The position numbers and the translations under genes were made by a program. A DNA stretch of 64,000 nucleotides from Candidatus Woesebacteria bacterium (lineage in GTDB: Bacteria; Patescibacteriota; Microgenomatia; UBA8517), in assembly GCA_963716475.1 (NCBI GenBank), contig OY970314.1, positions 237,226-301,225 of the forward strand, written 5' to 3'. Each line of letters starts with the position of its first letter. Within the stretch, counting starts at the first letter, position 1. The notes below the pieces were generated by a model. The model made no database searches. It worked only from the letters and a program-made list of their open reading frames with translations, and was not told the DNA's origin. Positions 4,375 through 52,751 of this stretch are shown piece by piece.

Positions 4375-4391
4375 ATCGGTTTTCCCCCTTC

Positions 4392-4492
4392 CGGAGGACA
4401 AGTCTAGCTTTGGCACCTTCTGAAGCCTTTACTCCAGAGGTTGTCGGCGGATCTTCAGGCTAGCTCCCTCCCCGCACTCTTGATATATGGAT
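4392..4492 (-). promoter_or_regulatory. SAM-I (S-box) riboswitch in metK leader
   Basis: Leader RNA (reverse complement) reads AUCAAGAGUGCGGGGAGGGAGCUAGCCUGAAGAUCCGCCGACAACC...GGUGCCAAAGCUAGAC, matching the conserved SAM-I core (CAAGAG, GAGGGA, GCCxGAxGA, CCGxCAACC, GGUGCCAA); CCUCC just 5' of the GGGGGA RBS suggests SD sequestration. Confidence 0.7.
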
Positions 4493-9261: not shown

Positions 9262-9302
9262 TCAGCTAACTTGCATTATACATAGAGAAATGTATCTGTC
9301 AA
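9262..9302 (-). promoter_or_regulatory. sigma70-type promoter (TTGACA-16-TATAAT) for the 8868..9254 gene
   Basis: Reverse complement reads cTTGACAgatacatttctctatgTATAATgc, 20 nt before the ATG. Confidence 0.45.
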
Positions 9303-10781: not shown

Positions 10782-10843
10782 ATTTTTATGAACTGGGCTA
10801 TGATATCAGCGATTTCTCAGCTTGTCAAGTACTAACCTATAGG

Positions 10844-11752
10844 TTACGTACTTTTCTTTCTGAAGAGCAGGTAGCCGATTACTATAAGAACCAATACGAC
10901 TCCGAAAGAAATTAATTTGTGTGTCGAAATCCAGTTGCCAAACCCGGAACTTGTGGCCGTGGCGGATACGCCCGTGGCTATTGGGGAAGCTGTTGCGCTT
11001 GGGGTCGGGGTAACTTTGGTTCCTAATACGGATCCTGTTCCTTTCTCTTTAGGAAGGACTGTTACTTTGCCGGAAACAGGTGCGCTTGATGCGCCAAGAA
11101 CCTGAACTGTTGCTCCTGTGTCCCCAACCAGGCCCGACGAGTTGCCTGCGTGATCAATTGCTCTGATGTTGTAGTAATACTCTACGGTAGGATCAAGACC
11201 ATTGTCGTCCCACGTCATTGTATCTCCGGGGTTTCCGCCTGCTTCTACAAGCCTGTGGGAATCATCCGCGTTGAACCCGGCTACCGTACCTCTATATATA
11301 ATTACTTTTGTGTAATCGCTATCCAGCGGGTTTTTCCAGTGAATTTTATAGGTAGTTCCGCCTGCCATTCTGTCCTTTCCGAAGTCAGAAACAGACCCCG
11401 GAGCGGTTGTATCCAAGGTTACCGCCGTTTCACTTGATACTCCGTCTACAATGACCTCAAACCAGAATTTTCCTTCCGATCCAAACTGATACCCGTTTAC
11501 CTGAACCAGACACTGGTTTACCGTCAAATTAATGGCCGGTCCAAAGGCGACGTAGCTTCCTCCATCTTTCTTCGAATAAAACTGTGCGTTGGTTCCGTTG
11601 GAAGTACAGGAAAGTTTAAAATCCGTATAGTTGATATACCCCGGCAATGTTTGGATTTGGACAATAGTTGCAGCATGAGCAGAGCTTACAAATAAAGCCA
11701 AGCCTACCAAACCGCCAAGTAACGAAACAACTATTTTGTTAATTTTTTGCAT
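10844..11752 (-). CDS. secreted FN3-like surface protein with sorting signal and THK-TM anchor
   Basis: Signal peptide (AHA cleavage); FN3-like (YKIHWKNP...EYYYNIRAIDHAGNSSG); VQVLGASS...LPKEKGTGS; C-terminal ISTHKLISFGVVLVLIVIGYLLFRKKST. Confidence 0.65.
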   Translation of the reverse strand: MQKINKIVVSLLGGLVGLALFVSSAHAATIVQIQTLPGYINYTDFKLSCTSNGTNAQFYSKKDGGSYVAFGPAINLTVNQCLVQVNGYQFGSEGKFWFEVIVDGVSSETAVTLDTTAPGSVSDFGKDRMAGGTTYKIHWKNPLDSDYTKVIIYRGTVAGFNADDSHRLVEAGGNPGDTMTWDDNGLDPTVEYYYNIRAIDHAGNSSGLVGDTGATVQVLGASSAPVSGKVTVLPKEKGTGSVLGTKVTPTPSATASPIATGVSATATSSGFGNWISTHKLISFGVVLVLIVIGYLLFRKKST

Positions 11753-21902: not shown

Positions 21903-24695
21903 TTATGGAGTATTCCAGAAAGAAATATTAGCGTAACTTTGGGAGGTCTTGGGCGTAGCGCTACCAACATTTGGTATAGTAAGCGTGTCACCACTATTGT
22001 TGTAAGAATCTAGCGCGCTGATAAATGGTTGTATTCCTAACCCTGACGAATAAGCTGCGTCTGCCTGTGAAATTATAAGTTGAATATTTGACGGACACCC
22101 AAAGGCTGCGCAATTAAGTTTGGCTGCAACGAGCTGTTGAAGCAAAGTCATTCTGGATTGATCTACGGAATTTCTTTTGGCACCGGTGGATGTTTTAGGA
22201 ATGCTAGAATAAAAGGCTCCAAACAGTTGGCTGAGTCCTGCAGATGGTGTGTTGGTGATAGTTCCTTTATGTATATTAGTTGCTGGTGAAAGATTCACAC
22301 CGATATAAAACGGATGCTCATTAAATATGAATGAGGTGAAGCTGGTATGTGTTTGCCAGAAACCGAGAGTTCTTGAGGGACTTAGTTTCTTGTTGGCAAA
22401 GGTACAAGTGATGTTTTTACCTGCGGTCAAATTTATAGTTGCGCTAAGCGTGGAATATGTGGTATTTGCATAAGATAGTGAAGTATCGTTGTCGATACAC
22501 GAGATTCCATTCGGTACCCAGAACACATTTGGCTCTGTTTCACCGATTGTAAAGGATCCCGGGAGCAGTTTATTGAAAACTTTGGTATTTAGGCTGCTGC
22601 CGTCATCGATAAGAGAAAAAGGTCCCAACGCCCCACCGCTAAATGAAAAACTCTCTATATCATTCGGTTGTGCATCTTTGATGATAGTAATGCTTCCGTA
22701 TCTGGTATTTGTAATGGTGCATGATTTTGCGTCTCCGGCGATTAATGTTACTGAACCATCTGATGCGCAATCCCCTGCTATAGTCGGACTGTAATTAGAT
22801 AAAGCCGTATTTGTCCCTGCTACCTCTCCAGCGGCATGCTTACCTGCGGTCACAATTACTGCGCCGGTTGTTCCCCTATCTGATACATCAGTAATTTTTG
22901 TAGAACCGTCTATCTGTAGGTCAAAAAGGCCGCCATCGGTACTCGGAAGTAAAACCTTATTTACTGTTAGTGTGGTTAAACTAAAAGGCTCGCACGCAGA
23001 GTCGCCGGCCGTATAATTGTTATCCCCAACATAGTGAGCGATAAAGGAGAATAAACCGTTTGATAAAGGACCTTCGGAACTGGATATTGCAGTTCCAGGA
23101 TCTTTGTTATCCAAGGGAATACTCCCGGCAGACGAACCTGTTGGGGTACATGCTCCATTAGTAAAGAAGGAAAAGTCAACATTTCCACTGGGCTCAAGCC
23201 CTGTTACTCCAATCCCTGCAACAGTTGCCTTATCGTAAACAGTCGAAGTAGAAGCATCTGTCGTTATGATACTGTTATCAAAATTATGAAGTTCTGTGCT
23301 AATTGTCGGAGTAGCTTGGTTCACTGTCAAATTTTCGCACGAGCTGTCGCCAGATAAATAATTTATGTCACCGTTATAGTGAGCCTTGAATGAATATGAA
23401 CCCGTGGAAAGTGGACCCCTACTGTTTGATGGATGGGCAATCCCGCTAGAAAGAACAACAGTCCCCGCAGAAGTATTTCCGGTTGAACAATCGCCACTTG
23501 TGTAGAAAGTAAAATCAACACTTCCGGTTGGAATTCCAAAAGCCCCGGAAGATGTGGCTTGGTCATGAACTGTGGACCCTAATGCAACAGGACCACTTAC
23601 TATACTTTCATTAGCCAAATGAATTTGTGTAGAAATATCTGGTGTAATTTGGTTTACCGTTAACAATTCACACAAGCTATCAGCGGGATTATTATTATCG
23701 TTACCTTCATAATGAGCGATAAATGAATATGTTCCCGCATTCAGTGGTCCTTCGCTATCGGACGGATGAGCTGTTCCGTCTGACAAAGTTACAATTCCTG
23801 CCGAACTTCCCGCATCTTCTGTACAACTACTATTTGGGTAGAAAGTAAAATCAACATTTCCGGTCGGATTATACCCTCCGGATATTGTGGCGCTGTCGTG
23901 AACGGTGGACCCGGCGTCAACTGATGTAATGGGGTTGTGTTCTGGATCATGAATGGTGGTGGAAAGAGTTGGAGACGCTTTATCGATAGTAACTGCTTCG
24001 TTACTGCAATTATCCGTAACAGGGTTATTGTTTGAATCTCCGTTATATGTTGCAATCCAGTGGTAGGTACCCGCCATTAGCGTGGTGTAGCCAGCTGAAG
24101 TTGAAGAACCATTTATTAGAGGCACCTCCACGTCTGTAAATACCGGCGTGTTTGAACAAGTCGAATCATTTGTATCATAAAGATTGAAAGTTACGGTTCC
24201 CGAAGGATCAGATCCCCCGCTAACAGTGGCGGTATCATAGATTTGTATACCCACCACTCCGCCGGCTGAAGGAGTAGTATAAATAGTCGGACTGGCTTTT
24301 TCAGTACCTGTACAATACAAACTTGCGGATTTTGTTTCGAAATTCGAATCAACTCTGTAGTGTGGCCCCCCTGTCCAGGTTGCTAGATCTAGGGTGTAAC
24401 TTGCAGGACTTGTTGACCCAAAAGGGATAGTTTTAAATATTAGGGGATCTGCCGGTACGAATTGGGTTCCATTTCCACCATGTTTATCGTAGAGAGTCAA
24501 AACAATTCCATCGTCCGGAATGATCCCGGTAAAGGTAACTTGTCCTGTTCCGTTACAATCTGCGCTAATGCCGGTAATTGCAAAAGTTGGCGTTTGTGCA
24601 AATGTTGTACTTTGCCTAAAAATACCTAGACGTGTCGTGACGAATCCCAGGAAGAAGACCAAACAAGCAGTGGCAGTCAATAACTTTTTAAACAT
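21903..24695 (-). CDS. large secreted protein (930 aa) with tandem Ig-like repeats and DUF11/prealbumin-like domain
   Basis: Signal peptide; about four ~110-aa repeats (..STVHDQATSSG..TGSVDFTFY..G.C......AGTV.LS.G.AHPS.S.GPL..G.YSF.AHY.GD.NY...S.CE.LTVNQ); then LTVNKVLLPSTDGGLFDLQIDGSTK...SCTITNTRYGSITIIK; no C-terminal sorting signal. Confidence 0.8.
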   Translation of the reverse strand: MFKKLLTATACLVFFLGFVTTRLGIFRQSTTFAQTPTFAITGISADCNGTGQVTFTGIIPDDGIVLTLYDKHGGNGTQFVPADPLIFKTIPFGSTSPASYTLDLATWTGGPHYRVDSNFETKSASLYCTGTEKASPTIYTTPSAGGVVGIQIYDTATVSGGSDPSGTVTFNLYDTNDSTCSNTPVFTDVEVPLINGSSTSAGYTTLMAGTYHWIATYNGDSNNNPVTDNCSNEAVTIDKASPTLSTTIHDPEHNPITSVDAGSTVHDSATISGGYNPTGNVDFTFYPNSSCTEDAGSSAGIVTLSDGTAHPSDSEGPLNAGTYSFIAHYEGNDNNNPADSLCELLTVNQITPDISTQIHLANESIVSGPVALGSTVHDQATSSGAFGIPTGSVDFTFYTSGDCSTGNTSAGTVVLSSGIAHPSNSRGPLSTGSYSFKAHYNGDINYLSGDSSCENLTVNQATPTISTELHNFDNSIITTDASTSTVYDKATVAGIGVTGLEPSGNVDFSFFTNGACTPTGSSAGSIPLDNKDPGTAISSSEGPLSNGLFSFIAHYVGDNNYTAGDSACEPFSLTTLTVNKVLLPSTDGGLFDLQIDGSTKITDVSDRGTTGAVIVTAGKHAAGEVAGTNTALSNYSPTIAGDCASDGSVTLIAGDAKSCTITNTRYGSITIIKDAQPNDIESFSFSGGALGPFSLIDDGSSLNTKVFNKLLPGSFTIGETEPNVFWVPNGISCIDNDTSLSYANTTYSTLSATINLTAGKNITCTFANKKLSPSRTLGFWQTHTSFTSFIFNEHPFYIGVNLSPATNIHKGTITNTPSAGLSQLFGAFYSSIPKTSTGAKRNSVDQSRMTLLQQLVAAKLNCAAFGCPSNIQLIISQADAAYSSGLGIQPFISALDSYNNSGDTLTIPNVGSATPKTSQSYANISFWNTP

Positions 24696-24845: not shown

Positions 24846-25901
24846 TTAATTTCCCGGGGTTGTGGTAGGTTCTTGAGGCGGGGTTTCAGTCGGCGTAGGG
24901 CTTGGCGTTGGTGTTGGAGGCACTGTTGGTTCTATGGTTGGTAACACTACTGACTCACCGGCAACCTGTGGTTCTGGAGATTTGCATGGTCCCACATAAT
25001 CTTCTTCGTGTCCTGCTTTTGGAGTTCCGTTTTCGTCAAAATGTCCATTTAATGCTTGGGGTGGAATTTCTAGGGTAATATAATTCGCCGGCTCATCTTT
25101 TCTTCCGGCAACATGGCATATTGTGATTTTTTCTGATGGTGTTGGTTCCCAGTTACCGGCAGTAAACGAATTACCTAAACTTAAATCGTGATCAGTAAAG
25201 TACGATGAAGATACTCCAGCTAAAACAAAAAATATTGCAAATATGGGAATTACCATTGAGACTTTGTTTGTGCCATTATCCTCTTCCGAAACTTTTATTT
25301 TTTTTAATAAAAAACCAATTCGCTTTATTGATTCTTTCTTTAGATATTTTAGCTCTTCATATACAATAATAGTTGCTGGAACGATCACCAGAAGTATAAA
25401 TATTTTTGGATCTTTAGCGGAATTTGCCGCATACCCCAAAAACGGTATACCGATTATTACTTTGCCAACTATCTGACTAGGTTTTATTTGCGCACCATCA
25501 ATAGCGGAATTTGCATCGCCTCTTGTTGTATAACTCCCCATTATCACAGAAACTATTCTGTGAGTTATAAAGGATTCTGAGTCTGCGGAATTTTTAAATG
25601 TAACAACGTCGCCAGTTTTGTAATTTTTAAGAGGTGATGAAAAGACAATAGATCCGGTTTGAATTGTCGGTTGCATGGAACCTGACGTAACAATATAAAC
25701 ACTTGGAATACCGGCAATATTTTTAATATCTAAAGATGAAAGATATAAATGATTTTTTACCAAAAATATCCCGACTAAAGCGCCAGTTTCCAATAAGACC
25801 AGCAACAAAAGAGAGGCCAAAATTATATCGTAGATTTTTTTAGACATTTGCCCAATAGATTGCGCGAATACAACCGCGATAACAATCGTATCCGTGTTCA
25901 C
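24846..25901 (-). CDS. SipW-like type I signal peptidase (S26) with C-terminal TM/Pro-Thr-rich extension
   Basis: SGSMQPTIQTGSIVF (Ser box) and downstream His region; N-terminal TM; extra C-terminal TM segments and PTPTPSPTPTETPPQEPTTTPGN tail; GTG start. Confidence 0.65.
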   Translation of the reverse strand: MNTDTIVIAVVFAQSIGQMSKKIYDIILASLLLLVLLETGALVGIFLVKNHLYLSSLDIKNIAGIPSVYIVTSGSMQPTIQTGSIVFSSPLKNYKTGDVVTFKNSADSESFITHRIVSVIMGSYTTRGDANSAIDGAQIKPSQIVGKVIIGIPFLGYAANSAKDPKIFILLVIVPATIIVYEELKYLKKESIKRIGFLLKKIKVSEEDNGTNKVSMVIPIFAIFFVLAGVSSSYFTDHDLSLGNSFTAGNWEPTPSEKITICHVAGRKDEPANYITLEIPPQALNGHFDENGTPKAGHEEDYVGPCKSPEPQVAGESVVLPTIEPTVPPTPTPSPTPTETPPQEPTTTPGN

Positions 25902-25932
25902 GCAATCTCAGGACAAACAATTCGTATCAACA

Positions 25933-26691
25933 TCAATTCTGATGCCCGATTTGTATGTTCATCCAATCAACGATAGCTGACGGCGCAGCAATCGAAATTT
26001 GCGAATCACCAGTGTCTAAACTTGTTAATGCGTCAGCACTTATCTGTGTCGATTTAACGTTAAACGTTAAATCCAAACTTTTACCCTGTAAGGTATTATC
26101 AGCGTTTGGATCCATTGCTAATTGGATACTTAATCTGTATTTATATCCAGGTTTTAATGCACCTGTAAATACTCCACCGCCTGTTCCCATCATATTGTTT
26201 TCAACAATAGAGTTCCAAGTTGTTAGAGATATTTTTCCTGTTGTATCACTTGCAGCCAATGCAGTGTAATAAGCACCATACGTTCCACTACCAGTCCCAT
26301 CAGTTATAAACGGATCTGTGACTTCCCAAGTAGATGTACCATCTGGTTTGAGAAATTCCATTTGGGCCGTTTTTATATACATGTGGTCAGCCATTACACT
26401 TTCACCAGTCCAGCTAAAATAACCAAACCACCCAAGATTTATTGAACCTTCGTTTGTCATCTGAATAGTGGCAAGAGTGGTAGCATCACCTGGTCTTAGA
26501 TTAGTCGTAGTTCCTAAATCATATGTAAATGTGTTACTGGGTGAATCGGCATTAACGTCCATTGCTAGAGTACCGGAGGTCAAAGTGTTTGCATATGAAA
26601 CATCAGTATCATTAAAAAAAGCCCCTGTGGCCTTGACGGCAACTACAGTAACAAGTGCTATTGTTGCAACACTTATTAATATTTTTTTCAT
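25933..26691 (-). CDS. TasA/camelysin-like secreted protein with SipW-cognate-class signal peptide
   Basis: N-terminus MKKILISVATIALVTVVAVKATGAFFNDTDVSYANTLTSGTL matches the A(Y/F)F(S/N)D...N.(L/F)..G.L signal class; beta-rich body; directly downstream of the SipW-like peptidase. Confidence 0.65.
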   Translation of the reverse strand: MKKILISVATIALVTVVAVKATGAFFNDTDVSYANTLTSGTLAMDVNADSPSNTFTYDLGTTTNLRPGDATTLATIQMTNEGSINLGWFGYFSWTGESVMADHMYIKTAQMEFLKPDGTSTWEVTDPFITDGTGSGTYGAYYTALAASDTTGKISLTTWNSIVENNMMGTGGGVFTGALKPGYKYRLSIQLAMDPNADNTLQGKSLDLTFNVKSTQISADALTSLDTGDSQISIAAPSAIVDWMNIQIGHQN

Positions 26692-26919
26692 AAAATTTTC
26701 ACCCCCTTTCCCGTCCCATACTGCGTGGGGACGACACGCATATCAAAATGAAATTTTTCAAAAATACGAGAAGCTACCAATGTAGTCGTTGACTGAAGAG
26801 CCACGTCGAACTTTGTACTATTCATCGTATCGACGAAACCAAGAACTAACCCGTGAGGCAGTTAGGGGTTAATAATTCGAATATGAGACTTTGTTGTAAA
26901 AAGTCAATATATCAAACAT

Positions 26920-26945
26920 ACACAAAAAGGAGGGGGCGCTTTTAG
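26920..26945 (+). repeat. intergenic motif, copy j
   Basis: acacaaaaaggagggggcgcttttag; overlaps the stop of the second sortase gene. Confidence 0.35.
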
Positions 26946-27544
26946 TAGACTTGGTTTGCAATGACGATGAGGCGGTCGAGGGTGGTGCCCGGGGGGTAAC
27001 AGGTTTGCATAGTAAGAGTGTTTTTATCCGGGTTTCCGGTCAGATATTGACTATCATTTGGGGCTACCACTTTTACCTGATCGACTAAATATTTATATTT
27101 TGTGCCTTGATAGTAAATAAATACTTCATCCCCTTTTGTAAGTTTTCCGAGAAGGTAAAAAACGGCATTATAAGTATTGACGTTATAAAAGGCATCCGTC
27201 GAGTGGGCAAAGATATAAACATTTCCCTTACTTCCCGGCAGTGCAGTCCCTTTTGCCTGGGCTACCCCGCGCTTTAAGGCTTTCAGATATTCGGTTTTAT
27301 TTTGTGAATCGACATTGGCAACGACGGGGGCTACGGCGTCAATTTTGGGGATGATTATGGAAAAATCCGTATTAGGGGGTGTCAGGACTTTTGCAGGAGT
27401 GACTGTTTGTTCATCCGCGATTATGAATTTATTGCCGACAGCTTGGTTATAGTTATATTTGATTTCTTCCTTGGCAACGGGCCAGAAAATTGCAACCAAA
27501 ACGACAAGAGCAACAGCAATTAAAATGGTACCGGCGATCTTCAT
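26942..27544 (-). CDS. sortase-family transpeptidase (second copy)
   Basis: N-terminal TM; NVYIFAHS (His); LTMQTCYPPG (catalytic Cys); TLDRLIV (Arg). Confidence 0.7.
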   Translation of the reverse strand: MKIAGTILIAVALVVLVAIFWPVAKEEIKYNYNQAVGNKFIIADEQTVTPAKVLTPPNTDFSIIIPKIDAVAPVVANVDSQNKTEYLKALKRGVAQAKGTALPGSKGNVYIFAHSTDAFYNVNTYNAVFYLLGKLTKGDEVFIYYQGTKYKYLVDQVKVVAPNDSQYLTGNPDKNTLTMQTCYPPGTTLDRLIVIANQVY

Positions 27545-28876: not shown

Positions 28877-30511
28877 CTATTTCTGTTTTCCGAGAACGGG
28901 AGTGTAATTAAGGCCTGAAAGGTACTGCGGGTCAATTTCATAAACGTCTGCAAAGGGATAACTTGACACCAGATGGTATTTGGCAAATCCCGGGGCGTTA
29001 GCGATTGCTTTATATGTTAAATCGTTATTATCATAAGTTCTCATCACGATCCAGCGTGCCCATTTGTCCGGCCGGGCAAGTGCGTTTGTCCAGTATAGCC
29101 CCGTTCCTTCATGAATAAACCTGCTCATGGGTAGACCTGAGGAGAATATGATAGCGTCATGACTGGCAACGGAGATTAATATAAAGCCCGGCTGATTCCC
29201 TGCGGCCTGGTTTAGATATCCGGCTACCTGACTGACGTTTTTCTGGGAGCTGCCCACCCTGGCGTCATCAATTGTAACGGCGTCGCCGTTTCTAAAAGCA
29301 AAGAACATTATGAATGCGTAAAGTCCTATTAAAACCCAACGCAGGTTTTTGACTCTTCCTATCAGGTAGCCGATAAATACCGCAAAAGCCGGCATCATCA
29401 TAATTCCGTAGCGGATGTTAAACCAGGTGTTACCGGAAATCCCCTGGACAAAAAGAACTGAAAAGCCCATAACCAGGGCCAATATATTAAAAACAAGGGG
29501 GGCCGCAAGAGATACCGTAGCAAGGCGCGTTGACCCTTTAATATTCTTGTCGGACCAAAGTAAGATTCCGGCAATAAATCCCAATCCCGCCACAAAAGTA
29601 ATACAGTTATAGAGAATTGCATACAAATAAATTTGACCGGACAGGAGAAGGTTGCCTTTAGTCGGCAGATTGCCGGCCGCCAGAAGCTGCATCTGCTGGG
29701 CATGTGCGGAAAAAGGACCCAGTACAAAATAAAGCGGATCTTTAAAAATGGCTGCGTTCCAGCCAAACCAGAGAACGATTCCGACTGCCCCCATGGTAAG
29801 AAAAAGAATCGTAAGCCCTTCGGCTACTTTATAACCCCGGTTTTTCCAGGTTGAAATTGCCACAATTGCTGTTGCAAAGAGAAGAAGAAACCAGCCGTCG
29901 TAACGCACGAGAGTGGAAAGCATAATCCAGAGAGAGGTCTTCATTAAATTAAGTAAGGATTTATCCTCCGCCCAGCAAATCAGGTAATAACAGCCGGCCG
30001 TCATGGTTGCGAGGAGTAAAAGCTCCGTCATTGCAGTGGATTGCAGGTATAAAATGTTGAGGTTGAGGGCAAAGACGGCAACTCCGGCAATACGGCCCAG
30101 TATATTTACATTCAGTTTCTCCAATATCTTATAGATGATGAGTCCGGTGGCAACAAAACTGATCATGTTCCAGATTGCTCCGGCAAACCCCGAGTGCCAG
30201 GCCCAATTATTCCAGACAAGAGGAATCATCAAAATATGATTAAGGGGCAGCCAGACGCTTCCGAGCTGGGCCAATCCCGGCTTGAGATTCTCTACAACCC
30301 TTCTGCCGATATCCAAGTGACTCCTTGCGTCGTTATAACTTAATCCCAAACCGTTTTGCAGAAATACATAGAAATAAGATATGGATAAGACACTTAAAAT
30401 CGCCGCAATCATCCAGAATATATTTCGTTTCAAAAATGAACGTAACTCAATAATCTGTTTTTTGGGAATCGCGAAATCAATAGATTTCTCGGTTGAATAT
30501 ATAGTTTTCAT
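28877..30511 (-). CDS. GT-C fold membrane glycosyltransferase (ArnT/PMT-like)
   Basis: 544 aa, about 11-13 TM helices; first extracytoplasmic loop carries an acidic/Arg motif (YNDARSHLDIGRRV) as in GT-C enzymes; large C-terminal soluble domain. Confidence 0.5.
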   Translation of the reverse strand: MKTIYSTEKSIDFAIPKKQIIELRSFLKRNIFWMIAAILSVLSISYFYVFLQNGLGLSYNDARSHLDIGRRVVENLKPGLAQLGSVWLPLNHILMIPLVWNNWAWHSGFAGAIWNMISFVATGLIIYKILEKLNVNILGRIAGVAVFALNLNILYLQSTAMTELLLLATMTAGCYYLICWAEDKSLLNLMKTSLWIMLSTLVRYDGWFLLLFATAIVAISTWKNRGYKVAEGLTILFLTMGAVGIVLWFGWNAAIFKDPLYFVLGPFSAHAQQMQLLAAGNLPTKGNLLLSGQIYLYAILYNCITFVAGLGFIAGILLWSDKNIKGSTRLATVSLAAPLVFNILALVMGFSVLFVQGISGNTWFNIRYGIMMMPAFAVFIGYLIGRVKNLRWVLIGLYAFIMFFAFRNGDAVTIDDARVGSSQKNVSQVAGYLNQAAGNQPGFILISVASHDAIIFSSGLPMSRFIHEGTGLYWTNALARPDKWARWIVMRTYDNNDLTYKAIANAPGFAKYHLVSSYPFADVYEIDPQYLSGLNYTPVLGKQK

Positions 30512-32043
30512 AGGTTTTTCGGATTTTTTCTTAAGGGAGTTAAGACGAGAGACAAACAGGCAATAATTATTGCTCCGGTAATAATTTCGTAATATTGGTA
30601 AGAAGTAAGAAATTTACTTAGGTAAGATTCATAAATAAATGATTTTGAAACACCCTGCCGCAGCTCGTAAATATTTCGGTCAAACGAATATCGTTGTACC
30701 TGCCCCGAGATTTGTTCGAGATTGGCAGCCTCAACCTGCGGTGGATTTGCACTCGAGGTAAGCGCCCCGGCCGTATTTACGATGACAGAGTAACCGAATA
30801 AGACCGAAAATATAATTAGCCGGAGACTGCTTGTCCGCCATTTATCAAGAAATGCCGCTATACAAATACCCCCCAGGCCGTAAAGCGGAATCAAATATCG
30901 TGAGCCAAAAGCCCAGCCTCCCCAGGGATCTCCCCAAAGTGCATAGAGGATAAGAGTTATCAGCATGACCGCTATTATTACGGAACCTATTTGGCGGTTT
31001 TTTCTGTAAATTACCCAGGCTCCGAGGATGCTTAAAAGTATCACCGGGGTAAATACGATAATTCCCCGATCCGGGCTGATAAGTTCCAGATAGAGACCGT
31101 TTACCAGATAACGTGATTGGAAGAAAGAGAGTGCCGATTTCGCAGGAGGTGTGTCAAAAGTTTTTTCAAGATCTGCGGTTACCGGCCGGGAATTTGCAGG
31201 ATTCCCGTTAGCGTCTATGTTTTTTACGGACTCTACCGTACCCGAAAATTGTAAAGGATTTTGATAGGATTTCAGGTTGAACCAGAGGAAAAATGCAAGC
31301 GGGACCAGAACCGTCAGAAAGCTAAATAAATGCCAAAGCTTTATTTTTAAATGGTAAGTCTTTGAAGTTTGTGTAAGGGTAAAATAATTCGCTAATGCCC
31401 AAATACCGATGGGGGCCATCAAAATGAGATTCGGATAGTCCAAAGGGATAGACATTGCGCACAGAAACCAGACCAGGGCGAGTGACCAGATCTTTTTGGA
31501 ACCGAGAAGTAAATAGAGACTAAGTAAAATCAGGAAAGTGGAGACGTGGTGCTGATAAAGAGTTACGGCATAATTAAATGCCGGTGTCGCAAACAGAAAC
31601 GTTAATGCACCAAGTGTAGACGCTACGGGATGAAAACCAAGTTTAACGGCAATTTGCCTGATTAGAAATACATTCAAGAGAGCAAAGATTGATATAACGG
31701 CATATGCTCCGAGCTGTGAACTTCCCAGAAGCTTACCGATTACATATCCCGGCATGACAATATAAGAAAGTCCCGGGGCGAATAGAGATACATAGTGGCC
31801 GTTAATATAACCAAGGTCAGGAATGGAGAACTGTGCGAGCGGAATAGAAAAGAAAAAGGATTTATTTTCCAGCAACGAATAGACCAACGCGAATCTCCCG
31901 CGCTCCGGTGAAAGTTCAAACGGACCATCACTTGTCCAGTAATTGGTATTAAGCGTATCCGGTGTGGGCGTTCCGATGTGTCCGCGCAAACTGAATAGTA
32001 GTATAACTGCCGCAAATATGAGGTATAGGTATTTGTTTTTCAT
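30508..32043 (-). CDS. GT-C fold membrane glycosyltransferase (paralog)
   Basis: 511 aa, polytopic; loop motif TSDGPFELSPERGRF after TM1; 4-nt overlap with the downstream gene suggests translational coupling. Confidence 0.5.
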   Translation of the reverse strand: MKNKYLYLIFAAVILLFSLRGHIGTPTPDTLNTNYWTSDGPFELSPERGRFALVYSLLENKSFFFSIPLAQFSIPDLGYINGHYVSLFAPGLSYIVMPGYVIGKLLGSSQLGAYAVISIFALLNVFLIRQIAVKLGFHPVASTLGALTFLFATPAFNYAVTLYQHHVSTFLILLSLYLLLGSKKIWSLALVWFLCAMSIPLDYPNLILMAPIGIWALANYFTLTQTSKTYHLKIKLWHLFSFLTVLVPLAFFLWFNLKSYQNPLQFSGTVESVKNIDANGNPANSRPVTADLEKTFDTPPAKSALSFFQSRYLVNGLYLELISPDRGIIVFTPVILLSILGAWVIYRKNRQIGSVIIAVMLITLILYALWGDPWGGWAFGSRYLIPLYGLGGICIAAFLDKWRTSSLRLIIFSVLFGYSVIVNTAGALTSSANPPQVEAANLEQISGQVQRYSFDRNIYELRQGVSKSFIYESYLSKFLTSYQYYEIITGAIIIACLSLVLTPLRKNPKNL

Positions 32044-32843
32044 ATTGAAATTCTGAGATTATTAATAGCGAAGCTGCGTAATTTTATTGCCAGGGTCGAG
32101 GATAATGCTTTAAATTCTATAAAGTCGAGTGTACGTGTTGTTCCGATTCTGGGAACATTTAACCGGTTAATCTTCGTATCCAATATTTTTTCATCCATGG
32201 AAAAACCAAGTGCGTAACCGCTTTTATCAACCAGTTGCAATATATCATTATTATATTTCCCCTTTGGATATGAAAAATAGCGTATAGGAATTTTTAGACG
32301 ATTCTCGAGCGCCAGCTTGCTGCCGCCGATTTCGCGGATCATTTGTTTCCGGTTACAGGTAGTTAAAATTGTGTGAGTAGCACCATGGCTACCGATTTCC
32401 CATCCGTCATTATGCAGGGAAAGTATCTGACTGTCCGACAGGAGCTTCTTCTGATTGCCTAGTTGGCTTCTGTCGGCATGCTCGACGTATGACAAAACGA
32501 ACAGAATCGGTTTAACACGATATTGCCTGAATAATTCTTTTGCCTGAAAAATATCGGCATAGCCGTCATCAAATGTTATTAGAAACTTGGGCTTAATCCA
32601 TCTTTTTTTGCCCTTTAAGTATGCTTCAAGATCCTGCGCGGTTGCCGGTTCAAAGTTTTTAGACATGTATTCAATCTGACGCCCGAGTGTTTCAAGGCTG
32701 ATACCGAATTTCCAGTTATCGTCCCCGACGCTATGGAAACATAAAACCACAAAATCGGGCCTCGTCAACCCCAGTAAACTATTCACGGCGTAGATGCACC
32801 TATTGATAACCTTACGGATAGTAATGAGCATATTTGTTTTCAT
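32040..32843 (-). CDS. polysaccharide deacetylase (NodB homology domain)
   Basis: FLITFDDGYADIF motif, HSVGDD and HGATHTIL His boxes. Confidence 0.75.
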   Translation of the reverse strand: MKTNMLITIRKVINRCIYAVNSLLGLTRPDFVVLCFHSVGDDNWKFGISLETLGRQIEYMSKNFEPATAQDLEAYLKGKKRWIKPKFLITFDDGYADIFQAKELFRQYRVKPILFVLSYVEHADRSQLGNQKKLLSDSQILSLHNDGWEIGSHGATHTILTTCNRKQMIREIGGSKLALENRLKIPIRYFSYPKGKYNNDILQLVDKSGYALGFSMDEKILDTKINRLNVPRIGTTRTLDFIEFKALSSTLAIKLRSFAINNLRISI

Positions 32844-32845
32844 AA

Positions 32846-33751
32846 TTATTTTGACGATCCCGCCAGTTCCCAGGTATTACCGATAACCGCTTTCTGATTA
32901 GAAACGGCAAATGTGTATAGAAATACAAACGGATAACAAATGGCGGCAAGAGGTGCTTTTATAAACATTTTTAGCCCCTCGGTTATGCAGAGAGCGGCGG
33001 GCCAGGCGTTTTGGTTTTGGACAAAGCCGGTTCCGAAGAAATCTTTCATAATTTTTACGGAATGTAAGTAGCGTACGCTTTGTTTTCTATTGTCCCCTAG
33101 AGTTGCCGGAATCCGGTAAAATATTTCGGTGTTTTTTACAAACGCGTATTTAAACCCGTTTTTAATTGCATAAAGGTAGGAAAACATATCCTCGCCATAA
33201 CTGAAAGGAAAATTTATCGATTTATATAGCCGTTTGGAAAAAGCCCTGGCTTGTCCGTGGCAGGTATATAAGTTCATACCCTTTTTGTATTTTTCAAAGA
33301 CACCGGACCGGTAAACGGCACCGAGGGTAAGCACTCTACTTACAAAATTCGAATTGTATAATTCGGACACCTTGCATGAAGTCAGATCAGATTCCCCGTC
33401 TATAATAGGTTTAGCCAATTTTATAAGGAAATCTTTGTTCCTGATCGATATATCGCCGTTCAGGACTATTAGAATATCGGACCCGGTCTTATGAGTAATT
33501 TGGTTCAGACCCCGGGCTATTCCCATCCGCTTTTTATTTTTTATTACGTGTATTAACGGACTTTTTATGGCCCGGATGGTTCCGACCGTATTATCAGTTG
33601 ATCCGTCGGACGAAACAATAATCCTATCTATCTTGATACCATCCTTATCCTGCTTAAGAAGCGCTCTTAAGAGCCGGCCTATGTTTTTTTCTTCATTAAA
33701 TGCAGGTATGCCGACGGTTAGCGTTTTTAAATGTTTGGATTTTTTTGGCAT
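32846..33751 (-). CDS. glycosyltransferase family 2
   Basis: VGIPAFNEEKNIGRLLRALLKQ...IIVSSDGSTDNT, the GT2 DxD/rossmann N-terminus. Confidence 0.8.
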   Translation of the reverse strand: MPKKSKHLKTLTVGIPAFNEEKNIGRLLRALLKQDKDGIKIDRIIVSSDGSTDNTVGTIRAIKSPLIHVIKNKKRMGIARGLNQITHKTGSDILIVLNGDISIRNKDFLIKLAKPIIDGESDLTSCKVSELYNSNFVSRVLTLGAVYRSGVFEKYKKGMNLYTCHGQARAFSKRLYKSINFPFSYGEDMFSYLYAIKNGFKYAFVKNTEIFYRIPATLGDNRKQSVRYLHSVKIMKDFFGTGFVQNQNAWPAALCITEGLKMFIKAPLAAICYPFVFLYTFAVSNQKAVIGNTWELAGSSK

Positions 33752-33752
33752 A

Positions 33753-34661
33753 TTAATCTTTTGTTGAGTTAATGCTGGCCCAGGTACCGTTTATAAGTTT
33801 TGGAGGATTGACATATTTTACTACACGTAAAATAACCTGAATCAGAAGTGCCGTGGGAAGTAGTACCGGAAAGCGGATAAAAGTTTTGAGTATCCCCATA
33901 ATTTTTCTGGATAGGGGCACTTTAAATTCCGGGTTTAAGTCCTCGGTAAAATATTCCTGCACAAGTTTCTTACCGCTGATGAAGCGTACGTTCTGTTTTA
34001 GATAATCCTTAAAATTACCGGCAAGCCTGGTGTAGACAATAGCTTTTGAAGCAAATTTAAATTTGATTTTTTCTTTCCTGGCCAGAAAATATAAATATTT
34101 TGCATCGACGATTAAGCCTTGCGGAAAGTAAACCGTATCGGCAAAATTTTTACGGAGTGCCAAAGCAAGTCCGTTACAATTGTGAACGGAATCACCGCCG
34201 TTCAGATCTTTTCGTGTTTCATACCAAAACTCCTGTGTAACTTCCGTGATTTGTTCGAAGAAACTACGTGGAGGAAAAATCGCATCCCTTCCGCTAGTCA
34301 ACCCCACTGCCCCATTTTTAAACTCTGCCACAAGTTGGTCCAATACATGGTTATCCGATAACATACAGTCTGCATCGAAGGTAACGACAATATCGCTTTT
34401 ATTGATTCTAAAGAGCTGGTTAAGACGGTTAGCTTTACCGACAGAAGTTTCCCCAATCAGACATTCAATTTTTTTGTACCGCTCTCCCATTTTCTTGACA
34501 ATTTGGGGAGTTGCATCCGTACATCCGTCGCAAATCACCAAAATCTTATCCAGCACAAAATTATCCTGTTTTTGAGTAACTATTGACCGTAAAAGAGATT
34601 CGATGTTTTTTGCTTCATTTTTTGCCGGAATCCCTATGGTTACTTTTAATTTTTTAGACAT
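33753..34661 (-). CDS. glycosyltransferase family 2
   Basis: IGIPAKNEAKNIESLLRSIVTQ...ILVICDGCTDAT; paralog of the upstream GT2. Confidence 0.8.
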   Translation of the reverse strand: MSKKLKVTIGIPAKNEAKNIESLLRSIVTQKQDNFVLDKILVICDGCTDATPQIVKKMGERYKKIECLIGETSVGKANRLNQLFRINKSDIVVTFDADCMLSDNHVLDQLVAEFKNGAVGLTSGRDAIFPPRSFFEQITEVTQEFWYETRKDLNGGDSVHNCNGLALALRKNFADTVYFPQGLIVDAKYLYFLARKEKIKFKFASKAIVYTRLAGNFKDYLKQNVRFISGKKLVQEYFTEDLNPEFKVPLSRKIMGILKTFIRFPVLLPTALLIQVILRVVKYVNPPKLINGTWASINSTKD

Positions 34662-35577
34662 ATATTTTGTTCATAAGCTGATTTTTTATTCCGGGGTTTC
34701 TCAAATTGAAAAAGGCCTGACGCAGTGCGATATAGGTTTGCAAATGCTTATTTATTTGCTTTTTAGACACTTTATTAATTGAACGCATCCAAAAATCTTT
34801 TGATTGTGTAACGGCAAGATAATTTAAATCAAAATTGGGAAACGTGGTACCGGCTTCTTCCCAGTCGATTAGCCAAATTTTTCCATTTGTATTGATAATA
34901 TTGTCGGGCGATAGGTCTCCATGCATAAAGACTTTTTTAATACTCCGGTTTTTGTAAAACCAAAGCCAGGAGGCCGCTGCCGTCTTTATAATTTCCTTCG
35001 ATTTTTTTGGCTCATTAATGCAAAGTATTAGCGTATAAAACGGCAATGAAAGTATAGGGCTAACGCCTGCAGCTTTTATTGATTTATCGCGGCTTATGAA
35101 GTTTGACCAGTATCCGACTGAGCCGATTACTTTTTCCATGACCCTTTTTTGAACAGCCTTGTTATAAGAAGTTAAGCGTCGGCCCTTGATGTAAGGGTAG
35201 AAAACCGCAAACAAATTATTTTGCTCGATAGTATCGTGAATGTACGGAATGAATATTTCCTGCTTCCTTTTACTGAATATTTTACTTTTTAACATTTCAA
35301 TAACACGGGACTCATTTTTTAGGTTGTAGTAGTTAATATCTAAAATTTTTCCACGCCATACTTTTGCGAAATAATCTGATTTTCCGTCACTATAAATACC
35401 AAAAGAGAAATTTTCACTCTCTTTCAAATTCTTCTCCAGTTTGTATTTGCCAAGTCTATGAGGCAGCCGGGGGATTTTATTGTCGACTATCCTGTTTATC
35501 AATAGAGCCATATACAGCCATAAAGTAAAATAGGGGTATTTTTTTTGCATATTATGTAGCTCCTTTAAATAGTTCAA
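34654..35577 (-). CDS. protein-kinase-like fold phosphotransferase (APH/CotS/sugar-kinase-like)
   Basis: Catalytic loop HGDLSPDNIIN and DWE motif (Mg-binding Asp) typical of the aminoglycoside/choline-kinase superfamily. Confidence 0.5.
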   Translation of the reverse strand: MNYLKELHNMQKKYPYFTLWLYMALLINRIVDNKIPRLPHRLGKYKLEKNLKESENFSFGIYSDGKSDYFAKVWRGKILDINYYNLKNESRVIEMLKSKIFSKRKQEIFIPYIHDTIEQNNLFAVFYPYIKGRRLTSYNKAVQKRVMEKVIGSVGYWSNFISRDKSIKAAGVSPILSLPFYTLILCINEPKKSKEIIKTAAASWLWFYKNRSIKKVFMHGDLSPDNIINTNGKIWLIDWEEAGTTFPNFDLNYLAVTQSKDFWMRSINKVSKKQINKHLQTYIALRQAFFNLRNPGIKNQLMNKIYV

Positions 35578-38500
35578 GCGTTTGCGACGCGCTTTTATCC
35601 CAGTCGAAATTTCCCGACCACCTGACGGATTCCTTAGACATTTTTCTCCTCAAACCCGGATTTTCGAGAAGCCGCAGGATATTTCTTGTAAATTCGTCAA
35701 CGTCTCCGTATGAAACAAGAAATCCGCTGTGCGGATTATGAACAGCATCTCTTAGGCCCGCGACGTTACTGGCAATTACGGGAGTTCCGCAGGCATTTGC
35801 TTCAATTGTGGTAATTCCCCAACCTTCAATAAGCGACGGATTAACAAACACCCAGGCTTTTTGGTAGAGATTAACTTTCTCTTTTTCGCTAACTTTTCCT
35901 GTAAAAGTAATCTTGTGATCAAGGTGGAGTTTTTTGGTAAGTTTCATAAGGTTTCTCTTTTCGTCGCCGTCGCCTGCAATTACAAATTCAACCGTCGGCA
36001 TTCTTCTTAATATCTTTTTGGCACTTTTAATGAATATAGGAATACTTTTTTGCGGACTGAGCCTGCCTAGGTATAAAACCATGGGACTGACTGATTTCCT
36101 GCCGGGTTTATATATATTTGAGTCAACGCCGTTGTAAACCACATAAGGCTCGTTTTGTGAGATGTTGTGCTCCAAAATATCGGCTTTAGATGACGGTGAC
36201 ACAGTCATTACCTGCGTGTTTCTGTATACCGCCGGCATAGCATATTTTTCAAGAATCATTCCGATCCATGAGAGCGGCGGCTTTAGCCTGATGCGGAAAA
36301 CGTCCTGATGAACATGGTGAATTAAAAGGAATATTTTTTCTTTCGCATAAAGAGGCGTGAAAAAAGGAATTCCGTTTTCCGAATCTATAATTAAATCAAA
36401 ACGGCCTCTGAATTTGAATACATAATATAGAAATGCCCAGATAAATACTGTATAGAATCCTCCGCGGCGGATTATATTTATTCCGTCAATCTGTTCGTTT
36501 CTGGGTGACTTGTGGTCGTCCCCGCAGAATAGTGTGACTTCATGACCCTGCCTTACCCAGCGTTTGGCCAATTCGTGAACATAGACTTCCGCCCCGCCGC
36601 TCCAGACGTGTTTTGTATCGCGCCAGTTGAAGACTAAAATATTGAGTTTATTTTTATTGATAGCCGTAAGAGGCGCCGGCGCCGGTGTAAAAAGTCCCAG
36701 TAGGTCTAGCGTATTTCTGGAAACAGATTGCAGTTTTCGGTAGTTAATATGAACGGAAAGCATCGCAGCAAAGTAAGCAATTCCTCCGATAAACATGACA
36801 TCCACAATTTCGGAAATATTTGCATGGAAGACAAACATTCCTATTATTTGAAGCAATGAAAACATAAATCCAAAATACGGCAACATATGTTCGCCTTTGG
36901 ATTGGTGGTAAAGAATTATGCTAAGGGCTGATGTTTGGAATACCATGGCCAGTGAATAAAGAGGCAGAAAAGGTGTAACCGAGAGAATTTTGGGACCAAA
37001 AAGTATTGGCGCAGTAAACTTTCCAAATACTCCGATACCTATAAACGCAATAAGCGATGATATGACTGTCGCTGTCAGAAGTTTATAAAAAGTAGATTCG
37101 GACTTTTCCCCTTTACCCTCATGCCTGCTAATTAGCGGGATTATAAAGGGTGTAAACTGCGACCCGAAGAAATAAATCATTTTTCCCGTCAGTGAAAGGA
37201 GCGTATAGCGGCCCGCGTCTGCCGGGCTCAGGAAAAGTTTTGCAAGAATTACGTCGAATGTTAAAAATGCTATAACCGACAGATTATTAACGAATGTCGA
37301 AGTGAAAAATCTCTTTGGGAACGTTTCAGGTACGGCCAGCTGAACGCCCTCTTCCCTACTCTTTATGTGACTGGCGAAATACCAGCCTACTATGAAAGAA
37401 ATGAGCAGTGATGCCGGAATTGCCAGATAAACCAAATCATGTAATCCTATTTCTACAAAGAAAATTGAAAGTGATAGCTTAGTTAATGCGACAATTACCC
37501 CCATGAACCCGAAAACAATAAAAAGAAGATTCCCGTTGATGAATCCGGAATCAACCGCATTGGCGAGGCCGATGACCCAAATGGGAACAAAAATTATAAA
37601 AGGAACAATAGTATCGGATTTGAATACGTGTTGAAGAACGGGAGTTAGTAGCAGCCAGACTGTTGCCAGAACGATAGAAACTTTAATACCGTCTTTTCTG
37701 GTTTTTGCCCAAAATCTTTTGGCGGGTGTATCGTTCTTGCCGAGAAGGAAAGCGCTCTTATGAGTAACGGAGTTTGATAAGGCGCTAAAAGGAACCGTTG
37801 CCAGGTATAGGAAGCTTCCAACGAGACCCACCATTCCGAAATCTTCAAGGCTAAGTTTGCGGCCAAGATAGGCGTTATATAAAAAATTTAAAGCATTCTC
37901 AAACATCGTCGCCCCGATCAGAAATGCCCCTGAGAAATATTCTGATTTCACCAGAGTCTTTATTCTTGCGATTCCGGGTATTCTGAGATTTTTAATAAAA
38001 TTGAACTCAAAACTTTTTGCTACTTCTTCTTTAACTTTTACCCTGTCCAGTCCATGGATTGTCTTTTCCCAAAAATGAGGTTTGACGAGCAACTGGTAGA
38101 ATGCAACAAACGCCCCGATACTAGTTAGGAGCCAGTAAAACGGAACCAGGAAAACATATTTTATTATGCTCCACTCTTCTCTCTTGGCTGCGCCGATCAT
38201 GTAGTAGTAGAGGTAAAGAAAATTGCCGAAAACTGCAGAAAACACGGCCATATAAAATATCGAAGGCGGATATAAAGCCTCGATCTGGGGACCGACAAAT
38301 TTATAAAGCAGAAAGTAAGCTGCGGTCATAGCCCACAGAAAAGGATTTATCAGCATAAAACCTACTCTAAGACCCGAAACCAGCTGGAAGATTAAAGAGT
38401 GCACCCGTTTTTCCTTGGCGAAGCTTAGGGGATTTCGCATCTGGACAAAATATGTTTGCATGTAGCCCTTGAGCCACCTACTCCTTTGGCGTATCCAGTT

Positions 38501-40183: not shown

Positions 40184-40320
40184 CATATTTTTGCTGACCC
40201 CATATCCTAAGTGAAGGAATCCCCCTCTCGTTATGGGGTTATGAGAACTTGTTGGCAATTATGCAATAAAATGCTGAATAATTGCTGAAATATATAGCTA
40301 AGATTTTATAAGAATGACGG

Positions 40321-47349: not shown

Positions 47350-47350
47350 C

Positions 47351-48409: not shown

Positions 48410-48435
48410 TATGGTAAGTAAAGGAAACTTCAGTA

Positions 48436-49644: not shown

Positions 49645-49702
49645 AATTAGCTTCGGAATAGTACTTGACAAGCAAATTTAGATAGTTAATACTGAATATG
49701 TA

Positions 49703-52710: not shown

Positions 52711-52751
52711 TGGTCTTAGAAAACTTTTCGTAGTATCATTTATACAGGAAT

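Follow-up and report, generated by a model that had tools for sequence, protein, structure and literature searches.

The DNA analysed here, hereafter the window, is a stretch of 64,000 nucleotides from a Candidatus Woesebacteria bacterium (assembly GCA_963716475.1, contig OY970314.1, positions 237,226 to 301,225 of the forward strand). This work concerns a cassette on its minus strand, in which the gene of a 252-aa TasA/camelysin-like subunit is followed by one open reading frame (ORF) that joins a SipW-type signal peptidase to what appears to be its own substrate, a passenger headed by a second TasA-type donor-strand motif. Read along the minus strand, four ORFs stand head to tail, namely those of a sortase, the 252-aa subunit, the peptidase and a 930-aa surface protein, and their features are listed below (aa, amino acids; TM, transmembrane segment; AF2, AlphaFold2; pLDDT, predicted local distance difference test).

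26942 to 27544, minus strand: sortase gene, 200 aa (PF04203; TIGR01076).
25933 to 26691, minus strand: gene of the 252-aa TasA/camelysin-like subunit, 'T' (PF12389; AF2; Foldseek).
26620 to 26691, minus strand: predicted signal peptide of the 252-aa protein, residues 1-24 (from the sequence and the alignment to mature TasA).
26566 to 26619, minus strand: donor-strand-type motif FFNDTDVSYANTLTSGTL, residues 25-42 of the 252-aa protein.
24846 to 25901, minus strand: 351-aa ORF of the SipW-type peptidase and its donor-strand-only passenger, 'PEP::D'.
25758 to 25835, minus strand: TM1, N-terminal anchor, residues 23-48 (hydrophobic stretch; AF2 helix 3-51).
25407 to 25724, minus strand: catalytic S26 domain, residues ~60-165 (TIGR02228; pLDDT > 90).
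25674 to 25685, 25557 to 25565 and 25497 to 25520, minus strand: SGSM Ser box, THR with His114, and GDANSAID, respectively.
25359 to 25403, minus strand: TM2, residues 167-181, the usual C-terminal helix of SipW-type peptidases.
25257 to 25358, minus strand: basic loop, residues 182-215 (8 K/R vs 4 D/E in residues 186-215).
25203 to 25256, minus strand: TM3, the putative internal signal peptide, residues 216-233, ending S231-S232-S233.
25149 to 25202, minus strand: second donor-strand-type motif YFTDHDLSLGNSFTAGNW, residues 234-251.
24984 to 25127, minus strand: 48-aa Cys/His module ITICHVAGRKDEPANYITL...GHFDENGTPKAGHEEDYVGPC, residues 259-306, head of the passenger.
24849 to 24983, minus strand: Pro/Thr-rich C-terminal tail, residues 307-351 (pLDDT < 50).
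21903 to 24695, minus strand: gene of the 930-aa surface protein (four Big_3_5 domains and SpaA_4), 3′ of the cassette.

The original prediction for this locus had named the first three of these ORFs, and all of them exist where it placed them, including the 351-aa S26 peptidase with its SGSMQPT box (residues 73-79), but their order had been misread. All genes lie on the minus strand; the 252-aa gene, described as downstream of the peptidase, is actually upstream of it, and the sortase gene, described as following the peptidase, comes first, with a spacer of 250 bp holding promoter-like hexamers between it and the 252-aa gene. A good ribosome-binding site (GGGGGTG) is present for the 252-aa gene, which ends 31 nt ahead of the GTG start of the peptidase, for which an ATG at 25847 (Met19), 54 nt inside the ORF, may be the true start. 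A 5-bp hairpin followed by six T was read by eye 3′ of the peptidase stop, and so was a TTGACA-17-TATATA sequence ahead of the 930-aa gene, which begins after a gap of 150 bp. The promoter and terminator scan gave counts no higher than expected from shuffled sequence (18 vs 17.6 and 6 vs 7.3), and therefore the limits of the operon are drawn from the gaps and the sites read by eye. These suggest a two-gene operon of the 252-aa gene and the peptidase-passenger gene, with the 930-aa gene probably transcribed apart from it.

The catalytic part of the 351-aa protein is an S26 peptidase of the endoplasmic reticulum (ER)/archaeal type (S26B; SipW/Sec11 type) and not a LepB, in keeping with the SipW-like character first assigned to it: it passes TIGR02228, the model of the archaeal-type signal peptidase I (86.7 bits, cut-off 51.85), fails the bacterial LepB model TIGR02227 (28.3 bits vs 47), and has SEC11C and SEC11A as its only PDB relatives at E <= 0.01 (SEC11C 7p2q, E 8.9e-13). 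It is the same enzyme type as Bacillus SipW, yet no equivalog, scoring 80.8 bits against the 190 of NF046067 in an alignment that reaches residue 202. The search for peptidase homologues gave 122 at E <= 0.001, the closer of which are 300-570 aa long, and in the 56 long homologues that were aligned G74, S75, M76, P78, T113, H114, R115, G128, D129 and D135 are invariant. Since Ser75, His114, Asp129 and Asp135 are among the invariant residues and the domain is modelled with pLDDT > 90, the enzyme part is taken to be intact. S75 and H114 align with the SGSMEP and HR motifs of SEC11C, and by homology they would be the catalytic residues (Ser-His, not Ser-Lys). The TM2 segment [VI]PATI[IV][VI]YE is kept in every relative.

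Beyond TM2, the original prediction had described additional TM helices and a Pro/Thr-rich extension. The tail is there and one helix is indeed extra (residues 216-233), while the other is the usual second helix of SipW-type peptidases, and the extension holds more than was noticed, namely a putative internal signal peptide, a donor-strand motif and a passenger. Residues 231-251 read S-S-S-YFTDHDLSLGNSFTAGNW, TM3 forms a helix over residues 214-236 in the AF2 model, and a hidden Markov model of the TasA-like family matches residues ~217-250 at its signal-peptide and donor-strand positions (E 4.9e-5). Searched in the six frames of the window with a loose pattern, the TasA-type motif has just two occurrences, one N-terminal in the 252-aa protein and one internal to the peptidase. 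TIGR04088, expected by the original prediction to recognise the SipW-cognate signal, came out as the top specific match of both segments at scores below its trusted cut-off of 19: 14.7 bits for the peptidase-internal segment, of which it is the sole specific NCBIfam match, and 11.5 bits for the N-terminus of the 252-aa protein, of which it is the sole functionally related model, so that the internal segment scores higher than the genuine N-terminus. Judged by these alignments, TM3 and the motif are homologous to a SipW-type signal peptide and the donor strand behind it.

Conservation of this junction is strong. Cleavage sites were placed by alignment with mature TasA (start A28-F29-N30-D31), which predicts S233 | Y234 as the site in the peptidase, and in all 56 fused homologues the flanking residues are small (S/T/A at -3 in 56/56, S/A/G at -1 in 56/56). 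The motif behind it is kept as Y/F at P1′ (52), F at P2′ (53), D at P4′ (54), E at P6′ (38), N at P11′ (52) and F/L at P13′ (53), with F235, D237 and N244 nearly invariant, and the internal site thereby looks like a selected, canonical small-x-small signal-peptidase site directly ahead of a TasA-type strand. According to one report, a Phe at P2′ of TasA is poorly tolerated by LepB and handled by SipW (PMC10269814). TM2, the basic loop, TM3 and the motif are retained in all 56 aligned long homologues; therefore, as regards the conservation of the extension among relatives, its proximal part is conserved, and its distal part is variable, consisting of lamin-tail domains, Pro/Thr linkers or others.

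The partner of the peptidase, the 252-aa protein, is a TasA/camelysin-type subunit that would both donate and accept a strand. As foreseen by the original prediction, PF12389 (Peptidase_M73) matches its N-terminal part (residues 2-85) with 33.7 bits against a gathering score of 22.5, and its AF2 model (84-sequence alignment; pLDDT 91.7, predicted TM-score 0.81) has the TasA fold. The best Foldseek match of this model is the TasA fibre 8aur_A (E 9.6e-8, probability 1.00, TM-score 0.43-0.46), followed by AbpA 7ueg, the Sulfolobus thread 7pnb, cannulae and chaperone-usher pilins, all of them donor-strand polymers, and the family profile matches TasA 8aur and 5of1 over most of its length (E 3.1e-9 and 1.7e-8, respectively). 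Residues 20-42 read KATGAFFNDTDVSYANTLTSGTL, and cleavage is predicted at T-G-A24 | F25-F26; among close homologues F26 is invariant and A24 and D28 nearly so. In the monomer model residues 22-43, the FFNDTDVSYANTLTSGTL stretch, are unstructured (pLDDT 51-78), which is how a strand destined for a neighbouring subunit would look. The protein lies far below the TasA equivalog NF046066 (17 bits vs a cut-off of 450). A word-indexed search found 13 relatives, two of which carry the JGI label 'predicted ribosomally synthesized peptide with SipW-like signal peptide' (the label of TIGR04088), and 9018 clusters at E <= 0.001 came out of a profile search over 1.8 billion representatives; therefore, the 252-aa protein is a divergent branch of a very large family. 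PF12389 homologues in Patescibacteria had already been noted (Wang et al., 2022, PMC9245690).

Pairing of the two genes is not peculiar to the window. Scanning one genome per species with an 18-sequence alignment gave 53 loci, and these, together with the loci from other searches, represent 51 non-redundant places. One to three TasA-like genes lie directly 5′ of the peptidase in ~44 of the 51 (count from the locus table), several Patescibacteria loci holding two or three subunit paralogues. Related loci with informative names belong to the Patescibacteria (Woese-, Ames-, Chisholm-, Beckwith-, Berkel-, Moran- and Parcubacteria among them), and several automated 'Gammaproteobacteria' labels look wrong. 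The SipW-type peptidase and the TasA-like subunit are thus the conserved core of ~50 related Patescibacteria loci, which bears out the pairing originally proposed.

The neighbour-joining tree of the catalytic domains consists of two clades, fused and unfused. Every complete peptidase of the fused clade carries the fusion, L026 and L027 having divergent motifs and L033 running to the end of its contig, and the peptidase of the window is placed in this clade next to locus L006. Peptidases of the unfused clade are 182-233 aa long, with L040 (480 aa) as the one exception, and in at least 13 of its 22 loci the next gene begins -13 to +100 nt from the peptidase stop, often overlapping it. The product of this next gene has a signal peptide, and its copy of the motif leads straight into a lamin-tail domain, without a jelly-roll in between (L053 7519-8163, with the domain at residues 45-159, and likewise L034, L043 and L046). 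Because the passenger is a separate gene in the unfused relatives, the fused passenger would be the counterpart of a separate SipW substrate, and TM3 would be the signal peptide of that substrate. This is apparently a Rosetta-stone fusion, a single event retained across a diverse clade.

That two overlapping genes of related genomes correspond to the two parts of the peptidase is also what a frameshift or an assembly error merging adjacent genes would leave. Such an artefact was rejected, and its probability is negligible: the identical 351-aa ORF, and with it the pair of the 252-aa and 351-aa genes, is present in an assembly of an independent read set, more than 50 homologues at 26-46% identity have the same continuous frame, and the fused homologues form one clade. 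We therefore regard the peptidase-substrate fusion as real with near certainty.

Fusions to the peptidase arose more than once, since in L040 the partner differs: in its ORF (7007-8449) the peptidase runs through an internal signal peptide into a TasA-like body of the acceptor type. Outside the loci described so far, P0088 and P0099 are Arg/Ala/Gly-rich, actinobacteria-like SipW-type peptidases of 299-349 aa, in which an extra hydrophobic segment is followed by a TasA-like motif (e.g. TSAAFTAATANTGNGFQAASAL) and a further domain; they may represent peptidase-substrate fusions outside the Patescibacteria.

Related loci also encode a further member of the system. The gene 3′ of the peptidase belongs to one family (alignment A5) in 22 of ~29 fused loci; its proteins have an N-terminal signal or anchor and a body with the TasA hallmarks NxxPGD ... 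AGNEYQ ... FDL, and are without the F-x-D ... N-x-F strand motif. Profile-profile comparison relates this family to the TasA-like family at 99% probability (E 6.3e-18), and to judge from these sequences it is apparently an acceptor-only TasA relative. In nine unfused loci (L039, L042, L044, L047, L048, L050, L053, L054 and L056), of the Berkelbacteria type, the C-terminus of the acceptor-only protein is a cluster of membrane helices in which a CFWW motif is conserved (e.g. L054 7910-8959), which could be a membrane anchor for the fibre end.

What the passenger does can be approached from what varies in it and what does not. It ranges from 19 to 321 residues across the loci, and even passengers of 19-46 residues hold the motif. 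PF00932 (lamin-tail domain) occurs in at least 32 of the 120 homologues listed, directly after the motif in those examined (e.g. P0002). The passenger of the window has no family beyond TIGR04088 in Pfam and NCBIfam scans and no sequence or domain match to TapA in Pfam, NCBIfam and structure scans, and its Cys/His module matches no Pfam family.

The consensus of this module (~50 aa) is (V/I)T(I/L)CHxxG...PANYI...GHFxENGTPxAGHExD...C, and copies with 54-68% identity lie close to the N-terminal end of proline-rich surface proteins (P0056, in which it occurs twice, P0067, P0071, P0072, P0086 and P0096), some of which carry an LPXTG signal (P0072, P0096); the module could be a metal binder or a disulphide-stabilised head domain. 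The end of the passenger, ...TTTPGN (24849-24869, minus strand), is similar to the ...TPG(A/N/Y) ends of lamin-tail-domain proteins (L003, L046 and L053); the likeness may be a coincidence, or the end may be what is left of a lamin-tail domain that was lost.

The 17-residue motif of the passenger was compared with the motif of the adjacent TasA-like protein of the same locus, and the pairings were shuffled between loci 10,000 times. Over all 36 loci the two motifs share 8.67 of 17 identities vs 7.13 ± 0.20 (standard deviation) in the shuffled pairings, a value that no shuffle reached; over the 27 fused loci 8.63 vs 8.06 ± 0.16 (reached by 2 of 10,000 shuffles); and over the nine unfused loci 8.78 vs 6.50 ± 0.53 (again reached by none). 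The window itself has Asp at P6′ of both motifs, a residue found at this position in 2 of the 56 fused homologues, 38 of which have Glu. This co-variation fits two strands that would have to suit the same partners, the cleft of the peptidase and the groove of the acceptor.

It also bears on the reading that the tail has nothing to do with priming and is a regulatory or blocking pseudo-substrate, or an exported surface module fused by chance to its processing enzyme. The highly variable distal parts (lamin-tail domains, Pro/Thr linkers, the Cys/His module) and the wide range of passenger lengths speak for such a reading, and the C-terminal region of B. subtilis SipW is said, in work by Terra and colleagues of 2012, to have a second, non-catalytic role in surface biofilms. 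However, conservation falls precisely on the donor-strand motif, which co-varies with that of the neighbouring subunit, and its retention in the shortest passengers is what would be expected if the strand is the functional part. We consider an unrelated tail improbable.

Whether the passenger would be released depends on the topology of the peptidase. The charge count of the basic loop and the positive-inside rule place the N-terminus inside, TM1 across the membrane, the catalytic domain outside, TM2 back across, the loop inside, and TM3 across once more with the motif outside, so that motif and active site would share one face of the membrane. A site on the same side as an active enzyme is by default expected to be cut, and we hold that the internal site, as its sequence suggests, is probably cleaved.

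Were it left uncleaved, TM3 would be a permanent anchor, the displayed motif would capture the first subunit, and the peptidase would tether the base of the fibre. The fusion does attach the donor strand to a membrane protein, an association of TapA with the membrane has been reported (PMC10151520), and the acceptor-only partner of the fused clade has lost the C-terminal helices seen in the nine unfused loci, so that anchoring could have shifted to the peptidase. However, an anchor has no need of the small residues at -3 and -1 that are kept in 56/56, and the segment descends from, or equals, the normal cleavable N-terminal signal peptide of the unfused relatives. A permanently tethered passenger is therefore rated as unlikely, though with a better claim than an unrelated tail.

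Based on the families assigned, the architecture of the fusion, the conserved site and motif, and the unfused orthologous arrangements, we infer cleavage, complementation of the subunit by the strand, and fibre formation in the following way. The peptidase would insert with three helices, the third being an internal signal peptide, so that S231-S-S233 | Y234-F235 is exposed on the outer face of the membrane near Ser75 and His114, and a cut at S233 | Y234, in cis or by a neighbouring molecule, would free the passenger. The latter has the donor-strand motif without a jelly-roll body, and only the Cys/His module and the Pro/Thr tail besides. In Bacillus, residues 28-38 of TasA are the donor strand that completes the sheet of the next subunit (PMC9674648); a TasA subunit cannot extend its strand before it is itself complemented, and the N-terminus of TapA resembles the TasA strand and nucleates fibres (PMC9674648, PMC10151520). 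Like TapA, the strand of the passenger would enter the first processed 252-aa subunit and free the own strand of that subunit, upon which polymerisation would start and the Cys/His head would be left at one end of the fibre. The fusion would enforce the co-localisation of enzyme and primer and a one-to-one ratio between them, and the opposite fibre end of relatives would have the acceptor-only protein as its cap or anchor.

Several observations weigh against this interpretation. Both segments score under the trusted cut-off of TIGR04088. In the AF2 model of the 351-aa protein the motif and the passenger have a pLDDT of only ~40-57, and the site is not docked in the active site. A family search did not find the acceptor-only gene in the window, and the passenger of the window has no lamin-tail domain (PF00932) in the Pfam scan, and this copy may therefore be a reduced one. 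The co-variation statistic, finally, ignores the shared ancestry of the loci.

Taking these points into account, we favour, with reasonable but not high confidence, the overall reading of a TasA-type donor-strand-exchange fibre operon whose peptidase is fused to its own donor-strand-only, TapA-like substrate. That the passenger primes the fibre, a role assigned by analogy, has about an even chance in our judgement. More tentatively still, and with the odds leaning somewhat against it, we propose a four-part system of Patescibacteria, in which a major subunit that donates and accepts would be joined by a donor-only initiator whose head varies, an acceptor-only protein acting as terminator or anchor, and a dedicated peptidase of the SipW type; the initiator would be fused to the peptidase in a large Microgenomates clade, where the self-cut could dispense one primer per enzyme and so set the number of fibres.

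The sortase gene upstream of the cassette raises the question of whether it belongs to the same system. Its 200-aa product is a sortase by PF04203 (E 1.4e-26) and TIGR01076 (60.3 bits vs a cut-off of 39.35), has a TMQTC motif, and reaches no class-specific cut-off. In the original prediction it was a dedicated sortase of a SipW/TasA module coupled also to giant adhesins, in one assembly system; on such a reading, the sortase would attach or polymerise the fibre. The gene indeed shares the strand of the cassette and precedes it by only 250 bp, 7 of the 51 non-redundant loci have a sortase within 7 kb, which exceeds a rough estimate of ~3% (for a 1-Mb genome with two sortases), and the peptidase-fused, acceptor-type body of L040 ends in LPITG, a hydrophobic helix, WRK and an acidic tail, so that a sortase could anchor the fibre in that genome. 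However, the L040 ORF is the only TasA-related one seen with a sortase-like signal: an LPXTG scan of the window found no C-terminal LPXTG in the 252-aa protein, the passenger or the 930-aa protein, and a scan of 59 loci found the L040 peptidase fusion as the sole LPXTG-like carrier among TasA-like, donor-only, acceptor-only and peptidase ORFs.

Furthermore, the sortases of L032 and L055 adjoin LPXTG genes on their own strand, opposite to the cassette, promoter-like sites stand between sortase and cassette in the window, and the only LPXTG protein of the window adjoins another sortase. This protein (11739-16409; 1556 aa, LPGTG, nine SpaA_2 domains and DUF11) had been counted among the giant adhesins and lies 10 kb away, beside the second sortase at 9299-9880; the 1568-aa ORF, also counted among them, is a glycosyltransferase. 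Coupling of a sortase to the cassette was thus rejected, on the LPXTG scans of the window and of the 59 loci and the 7/51 neighbourhood count, with L040 as the exception; we consider a joint assembly system very improbable, even more so than an unrelated tail, and the sortase of 26942-27544 is a neighbour whose membership in the cassette is not supported.

The 930-aa protein was likewise rejected as a part of the module, because a homologue stands beside the cassette in L006 alone and the gene looks separately transcribed. L006, the closest relative, has all four parts together with this homologue of 711 aa (L006 3194-5329). The two proteins have a signal peptide and a C-terminal region of ~200 aa in common (RT.GFWQTH ... 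LLQQLV.AKLNCAAFGCP ... SQSYANI.FW.TP), which is without a sorting signal and has no Pfam match in the scans run.

Elsewhere in the window, positions 9299-16409 (minus strand) hold a sortase-pilin unit of the 1556-aa protein, a 302-aa protein, a 319-aa protein (fn3) and the second sortase, which is likely the home of the only LPXTG substrate of the window. A complete type IV pilus cluster occupies 45604-55740 (plus strand), with a PilB-like ATPase (45604-47349), a second T2SSE ATPase (47351-48409), PilC/T2SSF (48436-49644), a prepilin peptidase A24 (50538-51008) and a row of about nine small genes whose products have an N-terminal methylation motif. The 64-kb window therefore encodes three surface-filament systems, namely the type IV pilus, the sortase pilin and the TasA-like cassette. 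The single 1568-aa ORF at 35552-40258 (minus strand) consists of two GT2-type domains and a GT4/GT1 domain and forms a block with the genes of PMT-like membrane proteins and of a polysaccharide deacetylase (28877-34661), and the region around it looks like a large glycan-synthesis region adjoining surface-protein genes. At 3313-4489 (minus strand), an S-adenosylmethionine (SAM) riboswitch (RF00162, 45.6 bits, 4370-4489) lies 5′ of the S-adenosylmethionine synthetase gene; it overlaps the listed GTG start of that ORF at 4416, and the actual start probably lies further downstream.

TasA-type fibres are a model for the matrix and surface filaments of monoderm bacteria and archaea, and how they start, end and are anchored is debated. 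To our knowledge, it would be unusual for a signal peptidase to carry a cleavable signal peptide of its own within the chain. A natural fusion is independent genomic (Rosetta-stone) evidence for a tight coupling of the peptidase with the donor-only protein, and suggests that SipW and a TapA-like initiator act together at the membrane, at which the tapA-sipW overlap of Bacillus had merely hinted; the acceptor-only relative of related loci suggests, in addition, defined fibre ends. If the proposal is true, a self-processing signal peptidase would set the number of fibres, and this in ultra-small, episymbiotic Patescibacteria, for which surface filaments are probably central to host attachment. 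In a literature search of incomplete coverage, no account was found of SipW fused to a substrate, of a SipW-type signal peptide inside a protein, or of lamin-tail domains in connection with TasA systems.

Compared with known systems, the cassette belongs to the SipW/TasA kind, in an architecture that is new. Among solved structures, eukaryotic and archaeal Sec11 are closest to its catalytic domain, with which they have the conserved Ser and His in common; unlike Sec11, the enzyme of the window is a single-chain, bacterial one with a fused substrate, and no subunits of a signal peptidase complex were seen. As polymers completed by strand complementation and bearing specialised end subunits, the chaperone-usher pili (Fim/Pap) resemble the Patescibacteria loci, which encode donor-only and acceptor-only relatives. 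However, chaperone and usher are absent here, and the polarity would be opposite, FimH being acceptor-only and the putative initiator donor-only, insofar as the end roles of the latter loci are deduced ones.

Closer likenesses are found among TasA-like systems. In the B. cereus sipW-calY1-calY2 and C. perfringens sipW-bsaA loci, as far as their summaries describe them, SipW is encoded with camelysin/TasA-like subunits, as it is here. These summaries mention no peptidase-substrate fusion. In Pyrobaculum calidifontis, AbpA, the second-best structural match of the 252-aa model, is a TasA-like donor-strand-exchange subunit, and AbpB, the counterpart of TapA, was proposed to be the initiator that supplies the first strand and an adhesin at the distal tip (Wang et al., 2022, PMC9245690); however, the ABP operon has no dedicated peptidase nearby, whereas in the window the peptidase is present and fused to the proposed initiator.

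The B. subtilis tapA-sipW-tasA operon, like the window, sets the gene of an ER/archaeal-type peptidase beside that of a TasA-fold subunit with an N-terminal donor strand, and just as the N-terminus of TapA mimics this strand and starts the fibre, the predicted mature N-terminus of the passenger resembles the strand of the subunit. According to PMC10151520, the stop and start codons of tapA and sipW overlap, in which its authors see a hint of association, and TapA and SipW have a low and similar abundance in Bacillus. The genetic coupling of accessory protein and peptidase thus takes the form of overlapping genes in B. subtilis and of a covalent C-terminal fusion behind a putative internal signal peptide in the window. 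The accessory core is Ig-like in TapA, a Cys/His module in the window and a lamin-tail domain in relatives, and unlike that of B. subtilis, the gene order of the window runs from the subunit to the peptidase with its fused accessory protein.

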